A DNA stretch of 32,000 nt from Acaryochloris marina MBIC11017. Lineage in GTDB: Bacteria > Cyanobacteriota > Cyanobacteriia > Thermosynechococcales > Thermosynechococcaceae. The stretch lies in assembly GCF_000018105.1 (NCBI RefSeq), contig NC_009932.1, forward strand, positions 123,111 through 155,110, given 5' to 3'. Below the pieces are notes generated by a model, which was not told the origin of the DNA, did not search any database, and worked only from the letters and a program-made list of their open reading frames with translations. Positions 9,671-25,042 of this stretch are shown here, piece by piece. Both the position numbers and the translations under genes were made by a program. Every line of letters starts with the position of its first letter. The first letter of the stretch is position 1.

Positions 9671-10223
9671 TGAGAAACCTCTGGCGTAGATTGTCTCACC
9701 CAGAATCATAGGTGAGTGCCCTGCGTTACGAAGGATAGTTGATAAAGTTGAGAATCCTATGAAGATGATTGAAAACAAACGACTTTCACTGGGCTAAAGG
9801 TTGCAGAGAAAGGCATTGTTCAAATTCTAGGATGCCAGGGGAAAACTTTTATACGGCCAAAAATCCCTGAAGTCCTTAAGCAGCAGTAGCGGCAGCCTCT
9901 ATCTCCCGAGTCATAGATTAGAATGAGCCATCAGCCTATCAGGCTGGCGGTGATCCCTCAATTTTGACTACTTTCTAACAAACGACAAACTAAAAGGCTG
10001 GAGTCATTTTAGTGCGTGTCGGTGGAATAATTTGCAGTGAAAGGGTTTAAGGCAATTTGACCCATGGAATGAAACCCAAAATATGTTGATCGCTATAGTC
10101 ACGTTGTTATCCGCTGAGTGAAAACGGTGGAGCTAAATGGTCAATGGGAACAGCTTTGGTTCCCTCAAATCGTTGCAGAGAAAGAAAACCTAGAAAAATT
10201 TACAGGTGGACAACTTCAATAAA

Positions 10224-10871
10224 TCAGCTCTTTGATGTCCGTCTTTGTTTAATAAAAAGAACTATGCATATTAGACAAAATATTACTCCAATCACAAAGG
10301 TGGTATATCCTAAAATTACAAGGAAGGTCACATCCATCCATAAGTAATGAGTATTGATGCTGTTGCTACTTTGGATATTTAGTTGAAACGAAAGATATTC
10401 GCTCAGACCTGCTTCATTTTTTACTGATAATCGATAAATATTATTCTTTGAGAAAGATATAGTATTAGAACTAAGTATTAAAATGTCATTGTATTTTTTA
10501 CAAGAAAACTTTTCTGATATTAACTTATTTTTAGTGCTTTTATTCTTTCCTTTTATTGAAGATAGTCTTGGCTTAATAAGCTCAATAATATTACAATCTA
10601 TTTCTAGTAACTCTGAATTATTAATTTTAAAGATGACATTATATCGATTTTCAGAAATATCATAATTCGTTTCAATATCAAAATATATACTATCATTAGA
10701 TTTTAAGAGTATATTTTTAGTTAAAGGTTTAATAGTATAAATCTTTTCTTCCCACTTATAATAGATAAAGATAGATAAGAAAATAAAGAATAGCCCTATT
10801 ATTCCTATTTTTTTATTTTTCATGAAGAATATACTAAAGACAGCAAAAACTAAGAGAACATGCCTACTCAT
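10224..10871 (-). CDS. hypothetical membrane protein in an AT-rich islet
   Basis: 215-aa ORF with hydrophobic segments at both ends (VLLVFAVFSIFF.., IGIIGLFFIFLSIFIYY, FLVILGYTTFVIGVIFCLICIVLFI) and an N/K/I/S-rich middle. Two 60-nt lines I counted had 20% and 32% G+C. Confidence 0.5.
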   Translation of the reverse strand: MSRHVLLVFAVFSIFFMKNKKIGIIGLFFIFLSIFIYYKWEEKIYTIKPLTKNILLKSNDSIYFDIETNYDISENRYNVIFKINNSELLEIDCNIIELIKPRLSSIKGKNKSTKNKLISEKFSCKKYNDILILSSNTISFSKNNIYRLSVKNEAGLSEYLSFQLNIQSSNSINTHYLWMDVTFLVILGYTTFVIGVIFCLICIVLFIKQRRTSKS

Positions 10872-10995
10872 AAAGAGCTGGTCGCACCTGGTGCTGCATT
10901 GGCAGATCTCGTGGTGTCGGGTGAGGGAGATGTAGAGGGAACTGTAGAGAAGATATTAGCGAGATTCTTGGATTTAGGGTCGGTTTAACCCCATA

Positions 10996-11412
10996 TCAAT
11001 CCTCACATAAGGGCACTCCATCACTGGGTTCATTCGTTGCAGATCCCACCCGTAATCGATGCCCATCAGGATCTTCAATATTCATTTCTCGCATTCCCCA
11101 AGAGAAATTAGTAGGTGCTTGCCGAATCTTGGCTCCTTTCGCTTTGTAATCAATGAATAACGCATCAACATCAGCCACGAATATTGATATCCATGTTCCA
11201 GGCTGCCCTTGTGCCCCCTGACATAAAAAGATGCAAACGTCATCTCTGGAAACAGATGCAAAAGTCGGTGGATCGCCCCAGTCCCAATCTTTTTGAAAGC
11301 CAAGAACATTGACATAGTAATCAATACTCGTAGGAATACTACTGACATTGAGTATGGGAGAAAGGCCCGAAAATTGGTTCTGAGCCATACTTTCTTTAGG
11401 TGTGCTAGTCAT
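10996..11412 (-). CDS. VOC (glyoxalase/bleomycin-resistance) family protein
   Basis: LSPILNVSSIPTSIDYYVNVLGFQKDWDWGDPPTFASVSRDD...APTNFSWGMREMNIEDPDGHRLRVGS is typical of the bleomycin-resistance/glyoxalase fold. Confidence 0.85.
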   Translation of the reverse strand: MTSTPKESMAQNQFSGLSPILNVSSIPTSIDYYVNVLGFQKDWDWGDPPTFASVSRDDVCIFLCQGAQGQPGTWISIFVADVDALFIDYKAKGAKIRQAPTNFSWGMREMNIEDPDGHRLRVGSATNEPSDGVPLCED

Positions 11413-11530: not shown

Positions 11531-11962
11531 ATGCTTATTCGATCAGTTCATGCTGTTGAGTGGGCCGATCCTGTCTGCCTGCCTATATTTAGCGCTCCAG
11601 TTTCTGCTGGTTTCCCCAGCCCAGCCGACGACCATTTGCAGAAAAATCTGAATTTACAAGATGCCTTGATTCCTCGACCCGCCGCGACCTTTCTGATGCG
11701 AGTCGAGGGGGATTCGATGGAAGGCTGTGGGATATTCTCTGGGGATTTGTTGGTTGTGGATCGCTCCATTGATCCAGTGGATGGAGCTGTAGTGATAGCG
11801 GTTCTAGAAGGTGAGTTTACAGTGAAGCGGCTCCGTAAAACCCAAGGAAAAATTTTGCTGACTGCTGAGAACCCAGACTATCCTCCCATCACTGTGCAAA
11901 GGGGAATGGATTTCTCTGTCTGGGGGGTCGTTACATTTGTGGTTCACGGGTTAGAAGCTTGA
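11531..11962 (+). CDS. umuD: translesion polymerase V autoproteolytic subunit UmuD (S24 peptidase)
   Basis: Ala-Gly cleavage context (VSAGFPSPADD), catalytic Ser in EGDSMEG and Lys in FTVKRL. The gene overlaps umuC. Confidence 0.9.
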   Translation: MLIRSVHAVEWADPVCLPIFSAPVSAGFPSPADDHLQKNLNLQDALIPRPAATFLMRVEGDSMEGCGIFSGDLLVVDRSIDPVDGAVVIAVLEGEFTVKRLRKTQGKILLTAENPDYPPITVQRGMDFSVWGVVTFVVHGLEA

Positions 11963-13224
11963 AACGATATCTGATCGGGCTTTGTGACTGTAACTCTTTC
12001 TACGCAAGTTGTGAGTCAGCTCTGAACCCTCGCTTGCAGCATAAGCCCGTGGTCATCGCTTCTAACAATGATGGGGTTGTTGTGACAGCCAATGCAAAAG
12101 CTAAAGCCTTAGGTCTGGTTATGGGTGTGCCCTTGTTCAAAGTCCAAGAGCTGATCAAGAAACACGATGTTAGAGTTTTCAGCTCCAACTATGCGTTGTA
12201 TGGTGATTTGTCCTCACGAGTGATGACGATTCTGGAGACCTTTACACCAGAGCAAGAGATCTATTCCATTGATGAATGCTTTATGCGAATGCCGGAATTT
12301 GCTGAGGCTACGACATACTCTCATAAGGTGCGTAAAACGGTGTTGCAATGGACGGGGATTCCTGTGTCCATTGGCATTGCAACTTCCAAGACTCTCTCAA
12401 AGATTGCCAATCATGTAGCAAAAAAGCAAAAGCAGTATGGTGGGGTGTTTGATATTTCCACTGCCCGTAATGCTGAGGGGATTTTGGCTACCTTTCCAGT
12501 CGCAGATATCTGGGGGATTGGTCGCCAATACAATAAGTGGTTGTTAAGCCAAGGGATTGAGACAGCGAAGGAGCTGCGGGATGCTAACGAGGGGCTAATC
12601 CGCAAAAAAATGGGCGTGGTGGGGGTGAGGATGATCCATGAGTTGCGAGGTATTTCATGTTTGCCCCTGGAGCTGGTTGCTAAACCAAAGAAGGAAACTT
12701 GCGTCTCTCGCTCTTTCGGTCAGCCAGTGACGGAGTTAGCGGATTTGCAGGAAGCGATTGCGGCCTATGCATCTAGGGCAGCGGAGAAGCTACGCCATCA
12801 AGAACAAGTATCAGAGGCAATGGTTGTCTTCGTGCGGACAAGCCCTTTTAAGCCAGGATATTTTCGCCAATCTGCTACTGTGCAATTCCCCATAGCGACC
12901 AACTATACTCCAACAATTGTGGAATCTGCTCGTAATGCGATGAAGCGAATCTATGAACCGGGTCGAGAATTTCAAAAAGCGGGGGTGCTGATGGTGGGTT
13001 TGTGTCCTGAGACGACTATCCAAGGGCACCTCTGGGAGAAGGATGAGGGTTGGGAGAAACGGAAGCGCCTGATGTCGATCATGGATGAAGTGAATGATCG
13101 GTTTGGCCGTGGAACGCTGGAGATTGCTGCGTCGGGGCTAAGGCAGACCTGGCGAATGCAGTCGAAGTGGCGATCACCGAGGTATACGACGTGTTGGGCT
13201 GAGCTGCCAGTGGTGAGTTGTTGA
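11959..13224 (+). CDS. umuC: Y-family DNA polymerase V catalytic subunit UmuC
   Basis: LCDCNSFYASCE...VVIASNNDG..V....AKALG...G.P.F...SSNYALYGDLS..V......IYSIDECF is the canonical UmuC/ImpB N-terminus. The TTG start overlaps the umuD stop. Confidence 0.92.
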   Translation: MKRYLIGLCDCNSFYASCESALNPRLQHKPVVIASNNDGVVVTANAKAKALGLVMGVPLFKVQELIKKHDVRVFSSNYALYGDLSSRVMTILETFTPEQEIYSIDECFMRMPEFAEATTYSHKVRKTVLQWTGIPVSIGIATSKTLSKIANHVAKKQKQYGGVFDISTARNAEGILATFPVADIWGIGRQYNKWLLSQGIETAKELRDANEGLIRKKMGVVGVRMIHELRGISCLPLELVAKPKKETCVSRSFGQPVTELADLQEAIAAYASRAAEKLRHQEQVSEAMVVFVRTSPFKPGYFRQSATVQFPIATNYTPTIVESARNAMKRIYEPGREFQKAGVLMVGLCPETTIQGHLWEKDEGWEKRKRLMSIMDEVNDRFGRGTLEIAASGLRQTWRMQSKWRSPRYTTCWAELPVVSC

Positions 13225-13288
13225 GGGGAATTGCAGATAGGCAAATTGTAAGACTGATCCTGGTGATTTGATGTAGACCATCTTCTCG

Positions 13289-14404
13289 CTATCCGACATT
13301 CTGAAAGAGAATCGATAAACGAGTAATCAAAGCTCCAAGAAGAACATAGCCGATTAATACTTGAGACATGACTAGAAATTGACCAGTAATACTCAAAGGG
13401 TGTGCATGGATTTCACCAAAGCCCAGAGTCGTCATTGTAACAACGGAAAAATATAGCGACCTAAACCAAAGCTCAAACAAACAAATAAACCCCAAATTTT
13501 TCTTGCATAAACTTTGGTTCAAAATATCATCGCTAAAATCAACTAAAAATGGGTTAGCGAAAGGTGTAGGCCAAGAATCTCCATCAGGTGCTGGAGTTCC
13601 TATAAGATATGCAATTGAAAAAAATAGAGAACAGCCTACAAAAGTACAGATAATCTTTGTTGTAGAACTACCATAGTCAGATATCCACCAGAAAATTCTA
13701 ATTACTTGTGTATAAGCAGAAACAAAAATATTAATCGCAAAAACAAGAATTAAACTAAGCCCAGGAGTTTCTAGTATTAATGCGGGAATCTTCTGTAAAA
13801 TATTTATTCGCTTGTTGTTTCTTTTGAGCCAATGCAGATAGTGTTTTTTCCATTTGCGCCAATTCGCATATTGTTTGTTCCAGAATATCTTTCGAATATT
13901 TCGTTTCAGCTTTGATTTTATGTGTTCTTCAATTCTGGCACTGTCTAGTCCCACAGCAGAAAAATTAGTTTTGTCATCAATCCTACAATCTGTGATCCCA
14001 GTCTTGCCATCAACAAGTGAGAATTTTGCAATCGTTCCACACAGGTCCACATTGTCGAAAATAGTGCCTCTCAAATCAACACCAGATAAATTAGCTTCAC
14101 TAAGATCAACACACCAAAAATCAATTCCACTTAAATTAGCTAGTCTTAAATCAGCTTTCTTTAGTATGGCTCCAGCTAAATATGATCCAGTCAAGTTTGC
14201 TCCTTTCAAGCAAGCCTTAGTAAGAACTGTTCCACCAAGCAATGATTGACTAAGATTAGCTTCGCTTAATTTAACTCCACTCAAGTTTTTTTCACACAAG
14301 TCTATTTGTGATAAATCAGGTTTTACACCTGGGTGACTTTCCCTCCAGCGATTCCAAGAATCGACTCCGTTCTTTAACTCCACAACATGCTCAGGATTTG
14401 CCAT
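13289..14404 (-). CDS. pentapeptide-repeat / two-TM-pore potassium-channel-like (Ion_trans_2) fusion protein
   Basis: N-terminal A(D/N)LxX repeats (KLSEANLSQSLL..ANLTGSYLAGAILKKADLRLANLSG..DLSEANLSGVDLRG). The C-terminal part has TM helices and a pore signature VVTMTTLGFGE (13412-13435). The gene is AT-rich; one line I counted had 27% G+C. Confidence 0.8.
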   Translation of the reverse strand: MANPEHVVELKNGVDSWNRWRESHPGVKPDLSQIDLCEKNLSGVKLSEANLSQSLLGGTVLTKACLKGANLTGSYLAGAILKKADLRLANLSGIDFWCVDLSEANLSGVDLRGTIFDNVDLCGTIAKFSLVDGKTGITDCRIDDKTNFSAVGLDSARIEEHIKSKLKRNIRKIFWNKQYANWRKWKKHYLHWLKRNNKRINILQKIPALILETPGLSLILVFAINIFVSAYTQVIRIFWWISDYGSSTTKIICTFVGCSLFFSIAYLIGTPAPDGDSWPTPFANPFLVDFSDDILNQSLCKKNLGFICLFELWFRSLYFSVVTMTTLGFGEIHAHPLSITGQFLVMSQVLIGYVLLGALITRLSILFQNVG

Positions 14405-14523
14405 CCTTACCCCAAGAAAACAAAGATAAAATCAAGATAAGCTAAATCTTTTCAATCTATCAAACCCTTCCACCCTAAATGAATCAAAGACACATCCTAT
14501 GATTCATCACCAATAGCAAATCT

Positions 14524-14877
14524 TCACCCTTCCCGATCACCAAAAGAACACTCCACCGTGATTTTGAGATTGCATTCCCCGCTGCCCTTCGTGATGTAAG
14601 GCACTCCCCCCTCACCCGCGACTTTGACCCCGAATTCCAAAGTCACCTTATCTACATTGGCCGTTGCCACCTCTTTGAAAGCATTGAGGGTATAGGCCGT
14701 ATAGGTGCGAATCGTCCCCTGCATGGCCTGGAAGTTTTTCAAGGCCACATCACCCATGCCTTTCGAGGTGCGGGTGGTCCCTTCAGACTCAGGCTGTGGA
14801 TGTGCTGATACATCATCCTCCGCTTCGATATAGATCACGGTTCCATCATTGAGGTGGATCGGGGCTAATTGGGTCAT
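14524..14877 (-). CDS. trypco2-like (trypsin-co-occurring domain 2 / CU044_2847-family-like) small protein
   Basis: The N-terminal LAPIHLNDGTVIYIEAEDD and C-terminal VTLEFGVKVAGEGGVPYITKGSGECNLKITVECSF match the trypco2 pattern described in comparative-genomics work on NTPase-dependent conflict systems. The gene is divergent from the caspase-STAND gene across a 92-bp spacer. Confidence 0.65.
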   Translation of the reverse strand: MTQLAPIHLNDGTVIYIEAEDDVSAHPQPESEGTTRTSKGMGDVALKNFQAMQGTIRTYTAYTLNAFKEVATANVDKVTLEFGVKVAGEGGVPYITKGSGECNLKITVECSFGDREG

Positions 14878-14969
14878 GGATTGGCTCTCGCGGTAAGATA
14901 CGGCAATAGTGATACTGCATGGTCGAAAACATTCTATGGTGATATCAAATCCGCTGCTTATCTCAACTT

Positions 14970-17900
14970 ATGAGCCGAGATGCCCTCATTGTTGGAATTA
15001 ACCGCTATCAGTATCTCCCGGATCTGAAAGCCCCTGCCCTGGATGCAGAAGCCATTGCACAACGGTTGGAGGACGATGGAGAGTTCGATACTCTTTACCG
15101 ATTACCGGAGATAATAATCCAAGGGGAAACGAAAAAGCCTGAGATTGGTGAAAAGGGATCTGTTTTTATCACGAAATTAAAGCAAGCATTAACGCAACTC
15201 TTTTTACCTAAAAGCCAACAAATACCCAAAACAGCTCTGTTTTACTTTTCTGGACATGGCTTGCCAGATCAAGATTTAGTGGGGGTTGATAAAGGTTATT
15301 TGGCTGCAAGTGATACCAATAAAAACAACCCTAGTTCGGGTCTGTCCCTGCTTTGGCTGCAATCATTACTATCCAAAAGCCCTATCCAGCAACAAATTAT
15401 CTGGTTAGATTGCTGTCATAGTGGTTCGATCCTTGTCAATGTCGGGGCAGCCAACCCTGGACATGGAGAAAGTAAAGACCGCTGTTTTATTGCCTCATCA
15501 CGGGACTTTGAAGAGTCTTGGGAGGACTTGAATAGTCCCTATAGTGTGCTTACCAAGGCGTTACTGGATGGGTTAGATCCCAAGCCTTTACCAGGACGTT
15601 GGATCGATACTTTTTCCCTGGTGGATTATGTCAACCAAGCACTGAAAGGAGAACTGCAAACCCCCGTCTGTACCAACTTTGGGGAAGCCATTAATCTCAC
15701 CCGGAGCTGGCAAGTCCAAGAAGAATCAACCAGTGTAAGTCAAGTTGATAGCGGTATTTGCCCCTACAAAGGATTGGAGTTTTTTGACTGCAATGATGAA
15801 GACCCCAAATACTTCTATGGCCGGGAGCAGTTGGTGGGTCAGCTCCTCGATCAGGTGCGAACCTCTAACTTTCTGGCATTGGTAGGGGCTTCCGGGAATG
15901 GTAAATCTTCAGTTCTGCGAGCTGGGTTGCTGCACCAACTGAAGCTGGGGCGACGTATTTCAGGGAGTGAACAGTGGCGAATTCGGATTGCTCGACCGGA
16001 TCGCCAACCGATACAGAATCTAGCCCTGGCCTTTGTCGAAGAGGGATTGTCCGATGGAGATAGGGCAATTGCTTTGGATAAGGTGGTTGGATTATTGGAT
16101 AAAGGGACTGCGGGATTACAGCGATTAGTCCAGGCATCTGCTGCACCTCGAACGGTTCTGGTGATTGACCAATTTGAAGAGGTCTTTACCCGCTGCGAGA
16201 ACCCAGAGGAACGAGAGCATTTCTTTGCTTGTTTGATGGGAGCTTTGTTAGATGTAGACAACAAGCTTTGCCTGATCATCGCCATGCGGGCAGACTTTAT
16301 CGTCAAATGTATGGAGCAGGAATATAGTGGCTTGGCCCGACTGATTGATCAGCAAATGGTCAGTGTGTTGCCAATGAAGACCAATGAGTTAAGGGCTGCG
16401 ATTTGTAGACCAGCAGAACAGGTGGACCTACAAGTTGAATCTGCCCTGGTCACTGAAATACTAAACGATATCGAAGGGGCACCGGGTAGTCTACCGTTGT
16501 TGCAATACACCCTGAAAGAACTTTGGAATCAGCGACAGGACAATCAACTAACCTTCGCCTCCTATCAAATTTTAGGCGGAATCCAAGGCACGTTGGATCA
16601 ACGGGCGACGGCTATCTATAACAGCTTTGATAAAGCAGAACAGCAGACAGTTCAGCATATTTTTCAGCAATTGACTCAGTTGGGGGAAGGCACGGAAGAT
16701 ACTCGGCGGCGAGTATTTCAGGATGACTTGATAACGGAGCCAAAGCATCCAGCTCAGCGAGTACAGCAGGTCATTGAACGACTATCTAGCCCCGAGAATC
16801 GCCTGATCGTCACCAGTGAAGTGGTCAGCAAATCCGACCAATCCACCCGCATGTCGATTGTGGATGTGGCTCATGAAGCCCTGATCCGTCACTGGAAGCT
16901 ACTTCGGCAATGGATTGAGCTGAATCGAGACTTACTGAGGAAGCAACGCAGGATTGAGGCTAGTGCGATCTCATGGCGAAATCAGGGGCAAAAGTCTGGG
17001 TATCTATTGCAGGGACTACCACTGATTGAAGCCATTCAATTTAACAAGGATAAGTCTGTGACTTTTCCCTTGTCAGACAATAGCAAAGCTTTTATCCAGA
17101 AAAGTGTCAGAGAACGCCGATTGAATCAGCTTAAGGCTGGAGCATGGTTGATTGTCCCAGCATTACTGATTCTCATCGTTAGCGAGTATATTATTCGAGA
17201 AAGTGGTGTCAGTAGAAACTACGTTCAATTGGACGGGGCAAGATCCACTGGAGAGAAACAAGCAGTTGATAGCTTAGTGGGAGGATGCAATGCTCAAAAA
17301 GAGGTACAGTGGCTACCAAGTTATTTAGCAGAACGTTTATTTGGGAATTGTCGCCCTCTGATACAAGCTCAGTTGGAGCATGCCAAACTCCGCCATGCTG
17401 ACCTCCGCAGCGCCATTCTAATTCGTGCCAACCTTTTCGCGGCTGACCTCAACTTTACCGACTTTAGCGATGCCGACCTTCGCTACGCTGATCTCCGCCG
17501 AACCGACCTCAACTTCACTGATTTTAACCACGCCAATCTCAATTTCACCAAGTTGGGTAATGCCAACCTCAACGGTACGAACCTCAGTGATGCCAACCTC
17601 ATCGGCACCAACCTATACAGCGCTGATCTACGCAACGCCATTCTCATTCGCGCCAACCTATTCAGTACCAATCTTAGTAACGTCAATCTCTATAGCGCTG
17701 ACCTAAGTAGTACCGACATGAGCAGTGCCAACTTAAGTAACGCCGATCTTATCCGAGCTAACCTCAGTGGTGCTGACCTCCACAATACCGATCTTTTCTA
17801 CGCCAACCTTAGTAACGCCAACCTTAGTAACGCCAACCTCAGCAATGCTATATTATTGAGTTCAAATCTTCGAGAGACAAAAAATCTCACCCAAGCTCAG

Positions 17901-18083
17901 CTAGAGGGCGCGGAACATCCATTGATTTGTAATTCACCTCTTCCCCAGAACATCAGGATTGACCGCAACAGAGACTGTGACAAGGTAGCTGCTGTCTTAC
18001 ACGAAAGATATCCACAGTTGTTCAGAGATATAGAAGAAGCAGAAAAACACGTTGAAGAACAACGACAAAGTAAGTGGAACTAG
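14970..18083 (+). CDS. caspase-like (peptidase C14) - nSTAND-type P-loop NTPase - TM helix - pentapeptide-repeat protein
   Basis: Caspase dyad: FYFSGHG (His96, nt 15255-15257) and IWLDCCHSG (Cys148/149, nt 15411-15416). Linker: CPYKGLEFFDCNDEDPKYFYGRE. Walker A: GASGNGKSS (15885-15911, Lys312). Walker B-like: VLVIDQFEEVF. TM helix: AGAWLIVPALLILIVSEYII (17136-17195). About 35 pentapeptide repeats span roughly 17367-17900. Confidence 0.9.
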   Translation: MSRDALIVGINRYQYLPDLKAPALDAEAIAQRLEDDGEFDTLYRLPEIIIQGETKKPEIGEKGSVFITKLKQALTQLFLPKSQQIPKTALFYFSGHGLPDQDLVGVDKGYLAASDTNKNNPSSGLSLLWLQSLLSKSPIQQQIIWLDCCHSGSILVNVGAANPGHGESKDRCFIASSRDFEESWEDLNSPYSVLTKALLDGLDPKPLPGRWIDTFSLVDYVNQALKGELQTPVCTNFGEAINLTRSWQVQEESTSVSQVDSGICPYKGLEFFDCNDEDPKYFYGREQLVGQLLDQVRTSNFLALVGASGNGKSSVLRAGLLHQLKLGRRISGSEQWRIRIARPDRQPIQNLALAFVEEGLSDGDRAIALDKVVGLLDKGTAGLQRLVQASAAPRTVLVIDQFEEVFTRCENPEEREHFFACLMGALLDVDNKLCLIIAMRADFIVKCMEQEYSGLARLIDQQMVSVLPMKTNELRAAICRPAEQVDLQVESALVTEILNDIEGAPGSLPLLQYTLKELWNQRQDNQLTFASYQILGGIQGTLDQRATAIYNSFDKAEQQTVQHIFQQLTQLGEGTEDTRRRVFQDDLITEPKHPAQRVQQVIERLSSPENRLIVTSEVVSKSDQSTRMSIVDVAHEALIRHWKLLRQWIELNRDLLRKQRRIEASAISWRNQGQKSGYLLQGLPLIEAIQFNKDKSVTFPLSDNSKAFIQKSVRERRLNQLKAGAWLIVPALLILIVSEYIIRESGVSRNYVQLDGARSTGEKQAVDSLVGGCNAQKEVQWLPSYLAERLFGNCRPLIQAQLEHAKLRHADLRSAILIRANLFAADLNFTDFSDADLRYADLRRTDLNFTDFNHANLNFTKLGNANLNGTNLSDANLIGTNLYSADLRNAILIRANLFSTNLSNVNLYSADLSSTDMSSANLSNADLIRANLSGADLHNTDLFYANLSNANLSNANLSNAILLSSNLRETKNLTQAQLEGAEHPLICNSPLPQNIRIDRNRDCDKVAAVLHERYPQLFRDIEEAEKHVEEQRQSKWN

Positions 18084-18087
18084 TCAA

Positions 18088-18584
18088 TCAAAACACCAAC
18101 TTCGCAATCGCCCCCTCAACCTGCTCATCGGTGACCTCAAGATACCCCGACAATGCGGCCAGCGTCCGATGTCCCAATATTCGCTGAATGTGCTTCGTCG
18201 GCACTCCAGCGTTGTGCATCCGTGTCAGGGCCGTGCGTCTGAAACTATGATTACTAAAGCCTTCCAGTCCCACCCGAGCAAAAGCTTGTCTCAAGATTCG
18301 GTCTGCTGAACTGACCCGGATATAAGAACGGCCATGACGACCAGGGAAAAGATAAGTGCGAGTCAAGTCAGGGCATAAGCCACTAAATACTCATGCAACT
18401 GGGGATGCATCGTTACTTCTCGCGTATCCCGCTTACCCTTCGTCTGATGCCAGCGAAATAACACCGATGGCTTGGGTCCACTGACATTGACCACATCACT
18501 GGTGAGTAATATACAGGCTTCACCGATCCTGAATCCGGTATAGAGGCACACACCAAAGAGGGCCAGATCGCGGGACTTGATTTC
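18088..18584 (-). pseudogene. tyrosine recombinase (phage integrase family) remnant, 5'-truncated and frameshifted
   Basis: The catalytic C-terminal half is split across two frames, overlapping at 18363-18366. One part reads ..SRDLALFGVCLYTGFRIGEA..; the other reads ..YIRVSSADRILRQAFARVGLEGFSNHSFRRTALTRMHNAGVPTKHIQRILGHRTLAALSGYLEV (HxxR, GH, Y). An upstream stop lies at 18585-18587 and the N-terminal domain is missing. Confidence 0.85.
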
Positions 18585-18669: not shown

Positions 18670-21600
18670 TTAGCCAAAGAGATCATCAACTGCACCTAGA
18701 GTAATCAAGGAACTTTTCTGAGCATCTGTCAGCCCAGTGGTTCTTGAAATATTCGTTTTTTCATAGGGCCTTGAAGGTCTGAAGGTTCTAATGCATTGCG
18801 CTGAATGCAAATCCCATAGCTTCACCGAGCCATCGTCACTTGCTGTGGCAATAGTTTGCCCGTCAGGGCTAAACTCAACCGAAATAACGCGAGCTGTATG
18901 GCCTTGAAAAATCTGTAGGCACTCACCCGTTTCCAAGGACCATAATCGTGCTGTTTGATCTTGGCTTGCACTTGCTAGACACTCCCCATCAGGACTGAAG
19001 GCCACTGACCAAATGAACTGTTTATGACCCGGTAACTCACGGATGCATTTTCTCATTTCAACTGACCAGAGTTGAATGGATTCGTAATCACTCCCACTAG
19101 CAAGGATTTGACCATCAGGAGAAAATGCCACCGACCGAACTCTAGTACCAACATCAATAACCAAAGATTCTTCTGACTCCAAATACCATAGGCGAACAGT
19201 TAGATCATCACTGCCACTAGCCATGATATGACCACTCGGACTAAACGCGAGTCCCCAAATTCGGTTTGTATGCCCTATAAGCTGTTTCAAGCATTCCCCA
19301 CTAGCTACCGACAAGAGTCTGACAAAGGAATCATCACATCCTGTTGCCAGCCATTTCCCATCAGGGCTAAACGCCAAAGGAAAGACTCGATTACCATGCT
19401 CAATGCTATGTAAACAATGACCATCAGGATATGACCAAACCTTAACCACCCCATCTTGGCAGGCTGATGCCAGAATTTGACCTTGGTGTGAGAAAGCAAC
19501 ACCCCACAACCAATTTTGGTGCCCTCGAAAAACTTGGCGGTTATGACCAGTATGAATATCCCACACCTGCAAGGTCCCATCTTCATGTCCATTTGCTAGA
19601 GTCTGCCCATTTGGATGAAAGGACACCGACCAAGTTCGATTGATGTATCCTTGCAGTGTTTGCTGACACACACCAGTGTCTACTCGCCATAGCTTAACCA
19701 TCGATTCACCGCCACTACTCACTAGAAGCTGACTATCCGGGCTAAAGGCAATACCCCAGATCACACTGGCATGTGCTTGAATTGTGCGAAAGCACTGATA
19801 ACTGGCAATCTTCCAGATGCGAATCACACCTTGGTGATCCGAGCTAGCTAACCACTTTCCATCAGGACTAAAAGCAGCATCCCAAATAATACTTTGATGC
19901 CCCTGCAATTTTGCCAAACATGACCTTGTCCTAATCGACCAAACCATGACAGCGTTATCCCAGGCTGCACTCGCCAGTAAATTTCCATCTGGACTAAAGG
20001 TCACTGAGTTGACCATATTGCTATGCCCAGTTCCAGTCCACAGACACTGACCGGACCGAATATCCCAGAGCTTAACAGTGCCATCCTCGCTCCCTGTGGC
20101 GAGGGTCTCTTCATGAGGACTAAAGCAAATAGACTTCGGAGAAGCACCATGAACATCATTGATGGTTCTAAGACATGCACCGCTGTCCAGAGACCACAGT
20201 TTAAGGGTGTTGTCATCACTAACGGTTGCTAAGGTTTGTCCATCTGGGCTAATGTCAAGCGACCACACACGATCGCGGTGTCCTGACAACACTCGTAGAC
20301 ATTCGCCGCTTTCAACAGACCAAACCCGCACTTTGGAATCATCACTGCCACTAACCAGATATTGAGCGTCTGGGGTGAATGTCACACACCAAACCCAATC
20401 CCCAGTCCCTTGAAGGATTTTGAGGGGTTGATAGGAATGCATATCCCAGATGGTGATCTGGCCATCATTCCCCCCCGTGACCATACTTTGACCATCAGAA
20501 CTAAAAGCAACGGAAAAGAAGGCCCCAAAAGATTGAGTAAAGGTACAGTTTCGGAAGTCTGATCCAGTAAGGTCAATTTGGTGAAGAGTCATGCCTTGAA
20601 AATCAGCTTGTCGAAATGTGAGCTGAGATAAGTTACACCCACTTAGGTCTGCTTGCAGCCAACGAAGGAGGTGCAGGCAATTGCTTGCAGCATAGCCCTG
20701 GGAAAATTGAGGATGTTCCCTGAAATATTGAAAGAACTGTAAAAGGGGACGTTGATCGGCAGCAAAGAGTTGAGCAATCGGCTCCAGAATTAATCGGGCT
20801 TGTGTCTTTCTCAGATAGTCTTTGGCTACGGGCTTACAAAGTGCAAAGCGGTTAAAGATATCTAATGCATTAGTTTCCAATTCTTGGATAACTTGTCGAA
20901 TGATGCGGTCAGTTAAATACTCAATCAGTACTGGTTGAAGCGTAAAGCCAACTGAACTCTTCTCAAGGGGAAGTCTTCGTTTTAAATTCTGTAGGGTTGA
21001 GGGCAAGTCCCACTTATCACCGACACGAAGCAGATCGGTCCTGAGTGTAGAAATAGAAACAGGCTCCCGATGTAAGGCTAACCAATAGACAACCTCTTGT
21101 TCTTTCCAGGATAATCGCTCAAAGTGCCAATCTAAGAGCTGTTTTAGATCGTCAAATATAGGTCGGCCTTCTCGAAGGAAGGCTGAAATGCTGCCATTGA
21201 AAACCTCATTGATATGATTTGCAGCCAGTTCAAGAGCAAGGGGGTTGCCATCGTAAAAGGATAGCAAGTGCTCCCAATCTTTATCAGTAGCAGTAAATTC
21301 TCCCAGTTGTGTTAAAAGTTGATGCGCTTCTTCAACCGAAAGCCCTTGCAACTCAAGGCACTGAATATGGTTTCCACCTCCTGTGACAGGACGAATATCC
21401 CGTGGCTTTTCACGACTGGTGAGTAAAAGGCAGCTTTGGTGGTTTACATCTCTAATCTTTTGGACAAGTTGTCCGTAGCCTTCAAAGCCTTGACGATAGT
21501 TCCCTGCCTGCTCACCACCCTGAAGAATAGATTCAAAATTATCCAGTATTAAAAGACAGCGACGTGATTGAAGGTAGTAGAGCAACCGTGATATTTGCTT

Positions 21601-22374
21601 ATCTTCAGATCCAGGTAGTTCAGTTTCCTGCTGATGGGACAAGAATTTAACCACCTCGGTTAGATAATCCCTCAGTGGTGGAGCGTTGAGCAGTTTCCCC
21701 CAAAAAACAAAGTCAAAATCCTCTTGAATCCCATTTGCCAATTTGAGAGAAAGATCGGTTTTGCCGACACCCCCATGCCCTAGCTTGACAGATAAATGTG
21801 TTTTTCCAGAACCTCGGATCCCTACTATAGCTACGAGGCGACAGTGATCATCTACTATCCATCGCTGAAGCATTGAGAGTTCGCGAGTACGACCGAAAAA
21901 AATAGAGACATCGGGTGCATCACCCCAGTTGCAACGAAACTCTCCGCATCTGGCATGTTTAATCCTAGTTTGAGTTTCGGACAGGGGCTCCAACAGGTTC
22001 AATTGATCATAAGGTTGACCCAGCAATAATCTACAGAGTCCATCGACCAGCCAATACTTGTAACTACTGTATTTGCTATTCAAGAAGTTATGTATGGTCT
22101 GATCTGAGGGTACTTTTTCGCTAATGGTTTGTTCCCAATCGTGCAGGAACTTCGATATTTGTAGGCGGCTATATTCAGACTTTCTATATTTTTCGTAAAA
22201 AGCTGTAATAATTTTTTGCTTTAGCTGAGGCGAAATTTCAGTTGAGAAATTAACTCTGCTCATTTGGAATAGGCCGAGGGATAAGTTTTTAGTACCACTA
22301 TTGAATACATAATTTAGTTTACATTGGGTTGTTATTGGTTTGAAATTGGCATCCACTTGGCATCCACTTGGCAT
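18670..22374 (-). CDS. STAND (NB-ARC-like) NTPase with 14 C-terminal WD40 repeats
   Basis: WGDAPDVSIFFGRTRELSMLQRWI..RLVAIVG is followed by two tandem P-loops (GIRGSGKT, GHGGVGKT). Walker B is CLLILDNFE. A short pentapeptide-like linker (LSGCNLSQLTFRQADFQGMTLHQIDLTGSDF) follows. I counted 14 WD40 units (..FSPDG..LASGS.D.T..LW..), about 18775-20545. An alternative start is the ATG at 22263 (MSRVNFS...). Confidence 0.9.
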   Translation of the reverse strand: MPSGCQVDANFKPITTQCKLNYVFNSGTKNLSLGLFQMSRVNFSTEISPQLKQKIITAFYEKYRKSEYSRLQISKFLHDWEQTISEKVPSDQTIHNFLNSKYSSYKYWLVDGLCRLLLGQPYDQLNLLEPLSETQTRIKHARCGEFRCNWGDAPDVSIFFGRTRELSMLQRWIVDDHCRLVAIVGIRGSGKTHLSVKLGHGGVGKTDLSLKLANGIQEDFDFVFWGKLLNAPPLRDYLTEVVKFLSHQQETELPGSEDKQISRLLYYLQSRRCLLILDNFESILQGGEQAGNYRQGFEGYGQLVQKIRDVNHQSCLLLTSREKPRDIRPVTGGGNHIQCLELQGLSVEEAHQLLTQLGEFTATDKDWEHLLSFYDGNPLALELAANHINEVFNGSISAFLREGRPIFDDLKQLLDWHFERLSWKEQEVVYWLALHREPVSISTLRTDLLRVGDKWDLPSTLQNLKRRLPLEKSSVGFTLQPVLIEYLTDRIIRQVIQELETNALDIFNRFALCKPVAKDYLRKTQARLILEPIAQLFAADQRPLLQFFQYFREHPQFSQGYAASNCLHLLRWLQADLSGCNLSQLTFRQADFQGMTLHQIDLTGSDFRNCTFTQSFGAFFSVAFSSDGQSMVTGGNDGQITIWDMHSYQPLKILQGTGDWVWCVTFTPDAQYLVSGSDDSKVRVWSVESGECLRVLSGHRDRVWSLDISPDGQTLATVSDDNTLKLWSLDSGACLRTINDVHGASPKSICFSPHEETLATGSEDGTVKLWDIRSGQCLWTGTGHSNMVNSVTFSPDGNLLASAAWDNAVMVWSIRTRSCLAKLQGHQSIIWDAAFSPDGKWLASSDHQGVIRIWKIASYQCFRTIQAHASVIWGIAFSPDSQLLVSSGGESMVKLWRVDTGVCQQTLQGYINRTWSVSFHPNGQTLANGHEDGTLQVWDIHTGHNRQVFRGHQNWLWGVAFSHQGQILASACQDGVVKVWSYPDGHCLHSIEHGNRVFPLAFSPDGKWLATGCDDSFVRLLSVASGECLKQLIGHTNRIWGLAFSPSGHIMASGSDDLTVRLWYLESEESLVIDVGTRVRSVAFSPDGQILASGSDYESIQLWSVEMRKCIRELPGHKQFIWSVAFSPDGECLASASQDQTARLWSLETGECLQIFQGHTARVISVEFSPDGQTIATASDDGSVKLWDLHSAQCIRTFRPSRPYEKTNISRTTGLTDAQKSSLITLGAVDDLFG

Positions 22375-22386
22375 CCACTTGGCATC
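22348..22386. repeat. 11-bp tandem repeat (ggcatccactt x3.5) at or upstream of the 5' end of the WD40-STAND gene
   Basis: Direct reading shows units at 22348-58, 22359-69 and 22370-80, plus a partial unit at 22381-86. On the coding strand each unit contains an ATG. Confidence 0.9.
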
Positions 22387-22840
22387 AATTCCATTTCAGA
22401 ATACAAAAAGCTATTGATAAAATTTAAATCACGATTTTCTCACTTACAATTGAGATATGATTATGACTACAAGAGTAAGTAACTTATTAAATTACTCAAA
22501 GCTAAGAACTTATTAGTAGCTTCTTCTAAGGATGAATCCATTAATCTCAATATTGCTTGATTCCATTCCTGCTTCAAGAGGTATCTATGTTGTCGAAGTA
22601 CATAATCTCTACCAAGCAATTACTACTTAAAGCAAATAAGTAGTTACGCTTTTCTCTATATATTGGATAAGACAATTTCACAGTAGATACATGAATAGTC
22701 ATACTTAAAGGATAAAATTCCTTATTCCCGTTAATATTTAATAATTAAAGCACCATCTTCTGCATTGATAACAACCCTTTTGATACTACCTCTTACAATC
22801 ATTTCTTAAGATTTAACACTCTAAATTATTGGAATAAATC

Positions 22841-23065
22841 ATGCCAAATTCAACTATTTTCCAAGAGATCAGAATCGGTCTTTCATTCGAGAATCTAAGT
22901 CCAAGTAGTTTCAATTCAGATTTTCTTAAAATTAGTGACATCACCGCTAGCCAAGTTATATGTGGAGCGCGAAGTATAGACATTAAAGCTATATATAGAA
23001 ACCACTTTAGCGAATTTATTTTAATATCGTCGAATTTGCCTTTTTTAGTCTCAATAATTCAATAA
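22841..23065 (+). CDS. hypothetical ORF, weak
   Basis: 74-aa ORF in very AT-rich DNA, where long ORFs are rarer. No motif or RBS recognised. Confidence 0.2.
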   Translation: MPNSTIFQEIRIGLSFENLSPSSFNSDFLKISDITASQVICGARSIDIKAIYRNHFSEFILISSNLPFLVSIIQ

Positions 23066-23411
23066 TGTAGATTTGCTAATAATAAAAATTCCTTGAAATA
23101 CTATCTAGGTTTAGTCTTAAGTGAGCTAAAAAAACAGAGTCTCTAGTAGGTATAGCTTTGAGGTATACTGCGTGATCTGTTCTAACGTTGATATGATTCG
23201 CAAATTTTCTCATTCAATATTTATAGCTTTGAAAACTATAGAAGAAAAAAACCTTAGCATTGGAATACCTTTTATGACAGTGCATTCAATGAATAGGAAT
23301 ACATACAGCTATTTGAAACTATCAAGAAACAAAGTTGAAATTTAAATATCATCTCTTACCAATAAAATAGTGGTTCGACGAATTTATAGCATTACTAGAC
23401 AGTGGAAGAAA

Positions 23412-24002
23412 ATGCTAAACATAAAAAATAAAGGTATTTCCCTTAATGGAGCATGTAAGCTTTCCTGGATAATATTCTTTTTCTTACTTACATCTTGCTC
23501 ATATAGCGACAAAAATAATATTCAAATCACAGATGAAGTCTTAGATGTACATATAAATTATGCAAAGTCATATATCACTGTCCAAAGATATAGGTATCCA
23601 GGAATACCCTGGCCTGAAAAAACGGATAATACAGATATATATATAACAATGTTAAATGGATTTATACAGAAATATGTATCTGCATTTAATGCTTCTAATT
23701 CTACCTTAAACTTCTCGGTTGACCAAAACTTTACTCTAGTAATTGGACAAGTAATCTATGCAGGAAATTGGTCTAATAAAAATGGGAAAATAAGTTTTAA
23801 TGGAAAATTGGATAAATTAGGTAATAATAGTATACCTAAAACCAGTGGTTGCAATGATTCACAAACAATAGAAGGTGAAAAAATTAAAGAAGACTTAGTA
23901 ATTATATCTTTTAAAGAAAATCATGAATGTGATAGTACTAGTAAAGAAGGAAGTAGCCTATATAAATCTTCTGTATCATACAAAATCAGACTTAAAAGTT
24001 AA
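23412..24002 (+). CDS. putative lipoprotein, function unknown
   Basis: From the ATG at 23412 the product is MLNIKNKGISLNGACKLSWIIFFFLLTSCSYSD, a signal peptide with a lipobox-like LTSC. The mature part is N/K/S-rich. The gene lies in the AT-rich islet. Confidence 0.5.
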   Translation: MLNIKNKGISLNGACKLSWIIFFFLLTSCSYSDKNNIQITDEVLDVHINYAKSYITVQRYRYPGIPWPEKTDNTDIYITMLNGFIQKYVSAFNASNSTLNFSVDQNFTLVIGQVIYAGNWSNKNGKISFNGKLDKLGNNSIPKTSGCNDSQTIEGEKIKEDLVIISFKENHECDSTSKEGSSLYKSSVSYKIRLKS

Positions 24003-24106
24003 TTCACTTAAACTATTGATTCCTTTATTTTATCTCAAGAAATAAAGGCGAAAATTGATCAAGTCTTGATCCAAGTTTTTTTAACTTATTTATTCAACAG
24101 AAAGCG

Positions 24107-25042
24107 ATGATGAATTTATCTAGAAGTACAGCATCTTTATTTGGATCTTTTATTGTAATTTTAATTGATGCTAGTATTACTTTGGGAAATGTTCCTAGCA
24201 ATAGGCAAACAGTACATTTTATAAAGTCTTCACCAATTGCCGATTCCAGGTTTTTATTGGATGGGTGTAAAATCTCTGTACTACGAGATACAAGAGATGA
24301 CTGCAAAAAAACCAATTCAACCGAATCACAGACAACTAACCCCAGCACTGATAGTAAAAAAGGTCAAAAACCAAGCAATGAAATAAAAAAATCATTGATA
24401 ATCTCTGATCACTCATTTTTTTCATGGAACTTACCTTTTTTTACATGGCCCATCGCTTCAAAATTAGCAACACATCCTCACATAGACTTAATAAAAACTA
24501 GCTCTTTAGAATCAACAGAGCCAATTAGAGACTGGTCAATGTACGATGAAATAGTTGTAATGGTACATGAAATTATTGGTCAACCCAATAAGATATCTTC
24601 TGGTGATACCCCACAGAGCCTCGCTGCCAAATTGAGAAAAAGAAGAATTAATAAGTATGCTTCAATAGAACTTGTCATTTGCAATGGAGGGACAGCCCAA
24701 TTAGGTTCAGATAAACAATCTTTTGCCAGTTTACTTGCTGCTTATCTTGACAGGCCGATTATTGCTTATACCCACCCGGTGAGAGTTGAAGCTTCTTATT
24801 GTTTCAAAGGATGTAATACATCCAGAATAGTGAGAAGCAATCGGCTAGAGCATAATAAAGAAGGTACTAAATATGAATATTTAATTAGTGATAAACCAAT
24901 AGATCGTCGTTTATATTATCCTAATAAATCTAGTAGTTCTATATCAGGTATACCCAATATTATACTTATAAATAATCTGAAGAAAGCTAATCAACCATCA
25001 GCACAGCCGCTTAAAATTCAACTTCCTCCTAGGAATGATTAG
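24107..25042 (+). CDS. hypothetical protein with an N-terminal hydrophobic segment
   Basis: 311-aa ORF in the AT-rich islet, with N-terminal LFGSFIVILIDASITLG. The C-terminal half has an H..G ... C.GG pattern weakly reminiscent of DUF4347. Confidence 0.5.
   Translation: MMNLSRSTASLFGSFIVILIDASITLGNVPSNRQTVHFIKSSPIADSRFLLDGCKISVLRDTRDDCKKTNSTESQTTNPSTDSKKGQKPSNEIKKSLIISDHSFFSWNLPFFTWPIASKLATHPHIDLIKTSSLESTEPIRDWSMYDEIVVMVHEIIGQPNKISSGDTPQSLAAKLRKRRINKYASIELVICNGGTAQLGSDKQSFASLLAAYLDRPIIAYTHPVRVEASYCFKGCNTSRIVRSNRLEHNKEGTKYEYLISDKPIDRRLYYPNKSSSSISGIPNIILINNLKKANQPSAQPLKIQLPPRND

Follow-up and report, generated by a model that had tools for sequence, protein, structure and literature searches.

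The stretch of DNA analyzed here (32,000 nucleotides of Acaryochloris marina MBIC11017, contig NC_009932.1, positions 123,111 to 155,110; hereafter, the window) contains two divergent genes that probably form a self-contained cassette of the abortive-infection type. One encodes a protein of 117 amino acids (aa) belonging to the Trypco1 family, which would act as a membrane-permeabilizing effector. The other encodes a membrane-anchored protein of 1037 aa, in which a caspase-like protease and an nSTAND1 NTPase are joined to a sensor region, and which would act as the receptor. The observations behind this view are the architecture of the large protein, its intact catalytic and nucleoside triphosphate (NTP)-binding residues, the conserved pairing of the two genes, the swapping of sensor regions among loci, and the absence, at other loci, of a channel gene that adjoins the pair in the window. 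An earlier reading of the sequence (hereafter, the original prediction) had united all three genes in one module. Its three open reading frames (ORFs), their spacings, and their orientations are all exact in the ORF list: 92 base pairs (bp) separate the divergent Trypco1 and caspase genes, and the channel gene lies 119 bp from the Trypco1 gene, in the same direction.

Architecture and conserved pairing of the two genes

The motifs described earlier in the large protein (a His/Cys dyad, a P-loop, and VLVIDQFEE) were all located as stated, and the Pfam assignments agree with them. In addition to the Walker A motif (Table 1), FSGHG occupies residues 93–97 (with H96), DCCHSG residues 147–152 (with C148 and C149), and the Walker B motif VLVIDQFEE residues 396–404 (with D400). 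All four families expected of the large protein and its channel-like neighbor, that is, Peptidase_C14, nSTAND1, Pentapeptide (E = 1.5e-38 in the large protein), and Ion_trans_2, gave matches in searches with hidden Markov models (HMMs). The protein shows the features of the nSTAND1 clade, defined by Kaur et al. 2021 (eLife, PMC8195603), namely, the model match and intact Walker A and Walker B motifs. It also shows those of peptidase C14, namely, the His-Cys dyad and the acidic positions of the S1 pocket; H96, C148, C149, D25, and D147 are invariant in an alignment of 11 diverse caspase partners. The orthologs at L001, L002, L008, L009, and L097 are 64–73% identical to the large protein. In the caspase partners of L050, L051, L056, L062, and L072, DCCYSG replaces DCCHSG, so that in this caspase family a residue other than His can follow the Cys pair.

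The small gene had been labeled trypco2, and this label is wrong. The 117-aa protein matches PF19493 (Trypco1) with E = 1.4e-25 and 90.2 bits (cut-off 24.6) and NF041216 (NCBIfam CU044_2847) with E = 1.7e-29 and 102.3 bits (cut-off 23), while no match to Trypco2 (PF19631) was found even at E ≤ 10. Its Trypco1 relatives comprise 435 close homologs and 500 clusters at 50% identity. At the N-terminus, a strand region precedes an acidic loop (residues about 20–43) that is disordered and variable in length. In the AlphaFold2 (AF2) monomer model, a long helix (41–70) is followed by three strands (77–87, 92–96, and 104–111). Two strand segments, 77–87 and 103–112, are strongly amphipathic (z = 2.6 and 3.1, respectively); the last strand of SsPepco, a characterized Trypco2 protein, gives z = 2.2. 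A motif and hydropathy scan found no hydrophobic segment or transmembrane (TM) helix in Trypco1. The invariant NLKITVECSF is followed by a tail, variable and charged where present, which has 5 aa here and 1 aa in several homologs ('ECSFN'). One protein in the representative library (P0415, 753 aa) gives 12 separate matches to positions 84–113 of the Trypco1 profile, as if the C-terminal β-hairpin were repeated in tandem.

For the comparison among genomes, loci were collected in three ways: L001–L005 via the large protein in reference genomes, L006–L016 by exact look-up of Trypco1 and channel homologs, and L017–L096 by scanning metagenomes with a Trypco1 alignment. We searched all six-frame segments of the loci with HMMs of our own, which represented the caspase domain, nSTAND1, Trypco1, and the channel pore. 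The pairing survey covered 91 Trypco1 genes at about 90 loci, and a gene was regarded as paired when a caspase-domain gene was present within 600 bp. The contig was too short for judging the partner of 15 genes. Among the 76 informative genes, 64 adjoin a caspase-domain gene: 60 are divergent from it, usually with less than 100 bp in between, and 4 lie directly upstream of it on the same strand. When the Trypco1 sequences were clustered at 70% identity, 34 clusters were paired and 5 were orphan. The adjacency is far beyond chance, and the expectation that the small gene and the caspase–STAND gene would co-occur across genomes is borne out.

Three further features were found among these loci. 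One is that the caspase gene runs on into nSTAND1 at every locus with a long enough contig. Another is that the C-terminus differs among the loci: TM-plus-pentapeptide in the window and 13 other loci, a WD40 propeller in seven loci, FGE-sulfatase/CLec in L011 and L058, and a weak GUN4-like match or no recognizable domain in the remainder. A constant protease–effector pair with a swapped sensor is the pattern described for conflict systems. The last feature concerns the closest relatives. In three sister Acaryochloris plasmids (L008, L009, and L010), Trypco1 is 90–92% and the large protein 70–73% identical to that in the window. L008 and L009 are homologous to the window at the nucleotide level from 14526/14534, where Trypco1 has its stop codon, as far as 17159/17370 within the pentapeptide array, so that the shared block comprises Trypco1 and the constant portion of the large gene. 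A PLSDB search yielded four DNA relatives and no others, all of them paralogous Acaryochloris plasmids with 80–84% identity. In a Limnothrix metagenome-assembled genome (MAG; L002), the pair stands alone amid the housekeeping genes thiL, mannosidase, and holB. At the Leptothoe locus L011, a 113-aa gene of a separate Pfam family, 'Pepco' (PF24393; L011:9404–9745), lies about 1 kb from the Trypco1/caspase–nSTAND1–FGE pair, with genes for a TIR-FGE protein and a CHAT protease in the same neighborhood.

Table 1 Features of the gene pair and the adjacent channel gene (positions in the window)
Feature	Position	Strand	Basis
Channel gene, pentapeptide plus Ion_trans_2 (K+-channel-like), 371 aa	13289–14404	−	ORF list, Pfam
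Trypco1 (CU044_2847-family) gene, 117 aa; predicted protease-activated effector	14524–14877	−	PF19493, NF041216
Candidate caspase cleavage site, T35-R36-T37-S38-K39-G40, where the hypervariable acidic loop of Trypco1 ends	14758–14775	−	Conserved basic motif
Divergent intergenic region, 92 bp; presumed divergent promoters	14878–14969	none	Recurring short-gap divergence, 60 loci
Caspase–nSTAND1–TM–pentapeptide gene, 1037 aa; sensor plus protease	14970–18083	+	Pfam, motifs
Peptidase_C14 (metacaspase/orthocaspase-like), residues 5–234	14982–15671	+	Pfam PF00656, E = 1.3e-12
Catalytic H96	15255–15257	+	Peptidase_C14 domain
Catalytic C149	15414–15416	+	Peptidase_C14 domain
nSTAND1 NTPase module, residues 265–676	15762–16997	+	Pfam PF20703, E = 2.2e-121, 406.5 bits
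Walker A GASGNGKSS, residues 306–314, K312	15885–15911	+	Motif scan
Single TM helix, residues 723–745, preceded by a basic cluster (KSVRERRLNQLK)	17136–17204	+	Kyte-Doolittle mean about 2.0–2.2
Predicted extracytoplasmic sensor region, residues 746–1037	17205–18080	+	Invariant Cys, Pentapeptide Pfam matches
Pentapeptide array, residues about 797–985	17358–17924	+	Roughly 38 pentads

Proposed mechanism and its alternatives

In the mechanism that we favor, a signal at the C-terminal sensor would lead to NTP-dependent oligomerization of the nSTAND1 module. This oligomerization would bring the caspase domains into proximity and activate the protease. The active caspase would then cut Trypco1, most likely after R36 or K39, and thereby remove the N-terminal strand and loop. 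The remaining core, consisting of the amphipathic helix and the β-hairpin, would form a membrane-permeabilizing oligomer and cause cell death or arrest. The step from oligomerization to caspase activation is taken from general knowledge of STAND and Avs proteins, and the roles of Trypco1 as caspase substrate and as pore are proposed by analogy with Trypco2/SsPepco. The sensor/protease/membrane-effector scheme in the original prediction is retained here as far as the caspase–STAND protein and its conserved small Trypco partner are concerned; its third part, the channel, is given up for the reasons described in the next section.

The cleavage step has a concrete candidate site. The close Trypco1 clade has K39 without exception and conserves R36 and G40 in at least 90% of its members; in the wider clade, [K/R]-G occurs at the loop position in nearly every member. 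Orthocaspases cut after positively charged residues, and in TbMC2 the specificity for basic P1 residues is conferred by Asp95 and Asp211 (PMC6426788). The positions of these two residues are occupied by D25 and D147 in the caspase domain: in a HMMER alignment, D25 falls on the 'G-C-x-N-D' aspartate of metacaspase-1, and D147 is located two residues before the catalytic Cys. The similarity to solved metacaspases is marginal, with metacaspase-1, MALT1, and AtMC4 as the weak best matches of the caspase-domain profile among solved structures (E = 0.016–0.4) and no match of the caspase domain to PDB sequences in phmmer; the predicted specificity for Arg or Lys at P1 is implied by the S1-pocket positions. 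From the conserved basic motif and the metacaspase-type S1 aspartates, we infer that Trypco1 would be cut after R36 or K39. The conservation suggests a cleavage at the internal [K/R]-G rather than in the C-terminal tail, and such a cut might release the predicted helix-plus-hairpin core.

As for the receptor, the single TM helix expected from the earlier reading was found as a strong hydrophobic helix, and the earlier figure of 'about 35' pentapeptide repeats was a fair estimate (Table 1). The position of the helix is conserved in 8 orthologs, and a hydrophobic segment occurs about 45 residues past nSTAND1 in 13 of 13 pentapeptide-type partners. The protease and the NTPase must be cytoplasmic. 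Beyond the helix, C773 and C794 lie in an N-cap ('GC...GNC') and C987 and C1003 in a C-cap ('ICNSPLP...NRDCD'), and all four are invariant in the orthologs, in which the C-cap is followed by a further conserved domain, about 50 aa long, at the C-terminus. Because the TM helix has a basic N-terminal side and is followed by the four invariant Cys residues, this part of the protein is predicted to face outside, and it fits an extracytoplasmic, disulfide-stabilized module. The array itself is about 15 aa long in L002 and exceeds 350 aa in L012, the extremes among the orthologs, and may be a stalk of variable length rather than a ligand-binding surface.

Several points weigh against the favored reading. 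The AF2 monomer of Trypco1 is moderately confident (predicted local distance difference test, pLDDT, 63.9), and Foldseek found nothing below E = 1 for it in the PDB. Homology between Trypco1 and Trypco2 was considered and rejected: hhalign gave probabilities of 2.4% and 1.5% when shallow and deeper Trypco1 profiles (47 close sequences and, at Neff 5.1, 59 diverse ones) were compared with a Streptomyces Trypco2 profile of 27 sequences, and SsPepco itself (WP_069919158.1) matches PF19631 only. The pore mechanism is therefore carried over on the strength of genomic analogy and the shared helix-plus-three-strands layout, and within the Trypco class the experimental characterization is that of Trypco2 alone. 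The [K/R]-G motif is retained in orphan Trypco1 proteins as well and does not track with the partner type; hence it was rejected as a marker of caspase partnership, and the motif alone is no proof of a caspase link. An extracytoplasmic sensor is atypical of STAND proteins that sense phage proteins. PADLOC gave no match to an Avs model and none at the system level, but only component matches to a generic caspase (6e-12) and, marginally, to mad8 (2e-3). Finally, 12 of the 91 Trypco1 genes have no caspase within 600 bp though their flanks reach at least 1.5 kb on both sides, and L097 has no Trypco1 within 5 kb of an intact large gene; thus, given these orphans (12/76) and solo large genes, the pairing is not obligate in cis.

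The unpaired genes have features of their own. L097 (A. marina MBIC10699 plasmid pREC2, 5083–8262) carries an intact paralog of the large gene with 71% aa identity; its homology to the window begins 11 bp upstream of the expected Trypco1 start, and the intergenic stretch is retained. Orphan Trypco1 genes with no protease nearby were found in L012 (12167–12550), L070, L085, L028, L038, L041, and L033. At three orphan loci, the gene after Trypco1 encodes an Amidase (PF01425) and in L012 is at 12730–14172; at three or four others, it is followed by a protein of about 240 aa and then by a PlsY/PPDK_N/PEP-utilizer fusion. Several orphan Trypco1 proteins terminate right at 'ECSFN'.

Two alternatives keep the two genes together and assign them other roles. 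First, Trypco1 could be a regulator, an adaptor, or a pseudo-substrate inhibitor, and the caspase itself could cause death or arrest by broad cleavage of host or phage proteins, like other caspase-type proteases of bacterial defense. The undetectable homology to the pore-forming Trypco2, the lack of a hydrophobic segment, the intact solo gene of L097, and the orphans beside amidase or PPDK-like genes are in line with this explanation, which we nevertheless regard as unlikely. The pairing is tight and ancient, with Trypco1 identities of 58–92% against about 65–73% for the large protein; the β-strands and the helix of Trypco1 are strongly amphipathic, as in SsPepco; and the large genes of two MAG loci without Trypco1 (L003 and L004) are frameshifted. 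Moreover, in the analogous Trypco2 system, deletion of SsPepco abolishes toxicity (bioRxiv 10.1101/2025.11.14.688446).

Second, the same machinery may serve a purpose other than anti-phage defense: an extracytoplasmic cue, such as envelope damage, a toxin that is secreted or contact-dependent, non-kin cells, or environmental stress, would trigger orthocaspase-dependent death or dormancy. The sensor predicted to lie outside the cytoplasm with its invariant Cys pairs and the lack of a PADLOC system match favor such a role, and these conflict systems have been linked to multicellular and social bacteria and to 'conflict' in a broad sense, not phage only (Kaur et al. 2020, PMC7159879). We consider it unlikely, given that the same constant module is fused elsewhere to cytoplasmic WD40 sensors, that the region is mobile, integrase-flanked, and STAND-rich, as is typical of defense islands, and that phage portal proteins elicit a response from the analogous Trypco2-Avs4 (bioRxiv 10.1101/2025.11.14.688446). 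Returning to the receptor–effector cassette, we offer tentatively, as a possibility, that Trypco1 is evolutionarily distinct from Trypco2 and is licensed by a metacaspase-like cut after the conserved Lys/Arg that ends an N-terminal acidic pro-segment, not by trimming of a C-terminal tail, and that the pentapeptide receptor reads an extracytoplasmic signal.

The neighboring channel gene

The third ORF is, as predicted, a fusion of pentapeptide repeats and a K+-channel-like domain. The 371-aa protein is 100% identical to a protein of A. marina; it matches Pentapeptide (E = 3.7e-25) and Ion_trans_2 (PF07885; E = 2.3e-10, 40.6 bits, cut-off 22.5) and contains the filter-like sequence TTLGFGE, of which T325-T326-L327-G328-F329-G330 is invariant in the channel family. 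The family profile matches the pores of the K+ channels GORK, NaK, and K2P at E of about 3e-8, and the features of the K+-channel superfamily (pore helix, filter signature, and inner helix) are all present. The filter reads TLGFGE as against TVGYGD, and K+ selectivity is putative. In the AF2 model (pLDDT 89.7), an N-terminal β-solenoid is followed by a helical membrane domain.

The idea that this channel is the third component, either as a caspase substrate or as a depolarizing executioner gated directly or indirectly by the STAND protease, is very improbable. It draws on the co-directional arrangement with Trypco1 and on the 119-bp spacer, which contains no terminator-like site; the channel gene may be co-transcribed with Trypco1 in this strain. 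The spacer also contains one promoter-like site (9/12), a weak point on the opposite side, and the counts of such sites in the region are no higher than in shuffled sequences. The distribution weighs against the idea as well. With a pore-domain HMM built from 120 channel homologs, no match was found in about 90 other Trypco1 loci, including the three sister plasmids at similar divergence, where ParAB, small unknown genes, or an insertion sequence (IS) are beside Trypco1 in place of the channel; the sole exception is L006/L007, which had been fetched via channel proteins. There, Trypco1 and the channel are adjacent with a 79-bp gap, and this adjacency has outlived the destruction of the other half of the locus by an IS: an ISL3 transposase cut off the first 15 Trypco1 codons and removed the large gene. 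The nucleotide identity to the window is 85% over Trypco1 and 79% over the membrane part of the channel. L006/L007 represents the same arrangement by descent and therefore one evolutionary event, not a replication; as independent support for a Trypco1–channel linkage, this ISL3-disrupted block was rejected.

The channel homologs themselves occur in unrelated contexts. The closest Acaryochloris paralogs (L014 and L016) have unrelated neighbors, without Trypco1 or caspase, and the family is widespread, with 1381 homologs in, among others, Planctomycetota, Desulfobacterota (Desulfobacteraceae), Chloroflexota, Ktedonobacteraceae, and Omnitrophota. Because the channel is absent elsewhere and the homology with the sister plasmids ends at the Trypco1 stop codon, we take the unit to be the two genes. 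Judging from this distribution, the channel is an independently distributed, lineage-specific neighbor and not a conserved third component; the earlier proposal of a channel executioner, which was to be checked by co-occurrence, fails on that check. Nor did PADLOC match a three-gene system.

HalA, the DNA-gated channel of the Hailong system, provides a precedent for channel effectors in defense and resembles the channel in having a membrane domain of the tetrameric-channel type and a large cytoplasmic domain; in the window protein, unlike HalA, the cytoplasmic domain is a pentapeptide β-solenoid. Foldseek gave a weak full-length match between the channel model and HalA (9nyi_A; E = 1.4e-4, TM-score 0.26–0.28, root-mean-square deviation 16 Å). 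HalA was not among the sequence-profile matches of the channel, and no HalB-like nucleotidyltransferase adjoins it (the neighbors are Trypco1 and UmuC). Membership in the HalA family was rejected on the TM-score of about 0.27, the lack of a sequence match, and the lack of HalB. The exclusion of the channel guards a large pentapeptide/K+-channel family against mis-annotation as a defense effector.

Surroundings and relation to known systems

The pair resides on a mobile, conflict-gene-rich stretch of an Acaryochloris plasmid-like replicon. On the channel side, a translesion-polymerase operon of UmuD (Peptidase_S24) and UmuC (IMS/IMS_C/DUF4113) occupies 11531–13224 (+) and is convergent with the channel gene. 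Directly 3′ of the large gene, 18088–18551 (−) contains two ORF fragments (92 and 62 aa) of an apparently broken tyrosine recombinase/integrase; the flanks of the pair in L008, L009, and L013 also carry integrases or ParAB. Next, at 18670–22374 (−), is a gene for a STAND-type NTPase of 1234 aa that carries about 14 WD40 repeats and matches the HEAT-ARM_XIII/WD40 models of PADLOC; it is a second, independent NLR-like gene beside the module. The product of the gene at 26749–31449 (+), 1566 aa long, combines DUF4347, 16 FG-GAP repeats, Calx-beta, and RTX nonapeptide repeats and is probably a large secreted or surface protein. The GC content, about 0.46 elsewhere, falls to 0.29–0.33 at 10001–11000 and 22001–25000, and the ORFs in the second of these stretches (23370–24002 and 24107–25042) have no Pfam match.

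The two genes do not constitute a new kind of system: the class was predicted in 2020 and partly characterized in 2025. The novelty claimed earlier holds for the three-gene combination only, which we judge to be no functional unit, and not for the two-gene class, which had already been described. The significance of the pair lies elsewhere. It represents an abundant cyanobacterial Trypco1–caspase–nSTAND1 branch, for which, by sequence, the Trypco2 mechanism is not simply inherited; its [K/R]-G site and metacaspase-type S1 pocket supply a concrete cleavage hypothesis; and its membrane-anchored pentapeptide subtype is a test case for STAND/NLR-like immune receptors that sense outside the cytoplasm. 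If the proposal is true, the large protein would be an NLR-like receptor of bacteria whose ligand-sensing domain lies outside the cytoplasm, on a disulfide-capped β-helical stalk of variable length.

In the definition of Kaur et al. (eLife 2020, PMC7159879), which concerns NTP-dependent conflict systems, Trypco1 and Trypco2 adjoin trypsin-like peptidases and exclude each other. The window shares with those systems the Trypco1 family, the nSTAND1 clade (Kaur 2021), the combination of a constant component with a variable sensor or effector, and the enrichment in cyanobacteria. In the systems of 2020, however, Trypco is found with trypsin-like peptidases and caspases with α/β-hydrolases, within vWA-MoxR ternary (VMAP) systems, whereas in the window there is no vWA or MoxR and Trypco1 is directly paired with the caspase–nSTAND1 protein. 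The EACC1-caspase systems (System 4 of Kaur 2020; EACC1-KrAvs12 of Evans 2025) are similar in having two genes, a small constant protein, an N-terminal caspase, and variable C-terminal domains on the caspase, sometimes with nSTAND1 and TM segments. They differ in the partner, which here is Trypco1, a member of a different fold family without a TM segment, and in the gene order, which is 5′-EACC1 then 3′-caspase as against mostly divergent. Assignment to this class was rejected on the Trypco1 partner and on the sub-threshold score of the caspase domain against NF047832 ('caspase, EACC1-associated type'), 84.4 bits against a cut-off of 140. With the cyanobacterial orthocaspases and metacaspases (C14B), the caspase domain shares the His-Cys dyad, D-x-C-H-S-G, and the two acidic S1-pocket residues; unlike them, it forms one protein with a STAND NTPase and a membrane sensor. 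The tripartite layout of Avs-type proteins is also present, as caspase, nSTAND1, and TM-pentapeptide.

The closest counterpart is the Pepco–protease class of Evans et al. (bioRxiv 10.1101/2025.11.14.688446), who group Trypco1 and Trypco2 as 'Pepco' and treat Trypco proteins as protease-activated death effectors. Their Pepco partners include cysteine proteases, the hosts include cyanobacteria, and the sensors fused to the proteases include FGE domains and 'transmembrane STAND ATPases'. The characterized protein, SsPepco of Streptomyces subrutilus, which accompanies a trypsin-like Avs4 and is named 'Trypco2' in the supplementary legends, is a pre-assembled, sodium dodecyl sulfate (SDS)-resistant β-barrel of 9–10 subunits; it requires an amphipathic basal helix and becomes active when its 2-kDa C-terminal tail is cut off after Ile97. 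The window resembles this system in that a gene for a protein of about 117 aa lies beside a protease fused to a STAND sensor and in the layout of a helix and amphipathic β-strands. It differs in three respects. One is that Trypco1, for which no sequence homology to Trypco2 was detectable, has an extra N-terminal strand and an acidic loop, and its C-terminal tail is short to absent, whereas that of SsPepco is 20 aa long, charged, and proline-rich. Another is that the protease is metacaspase-like with a predicted basic P1, whereas the SsPepco partner is trypsin-like and cuts after Ile97. The last is that the sensor is a TM-anchored pentapeptide protein, whereas that of the SsPepco system is the cytoplasmic portal sensor Avs4. 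A Trypco-class gene adjoins a sensor-fused protease in the window, and H96 and C149 of this protease are intact. Because Evans et al. (2025) list Trypco1 as a Pepco and include transmembrane STAND sensors, the two-gene unit is a member of the already described Pepco–protease effector class.

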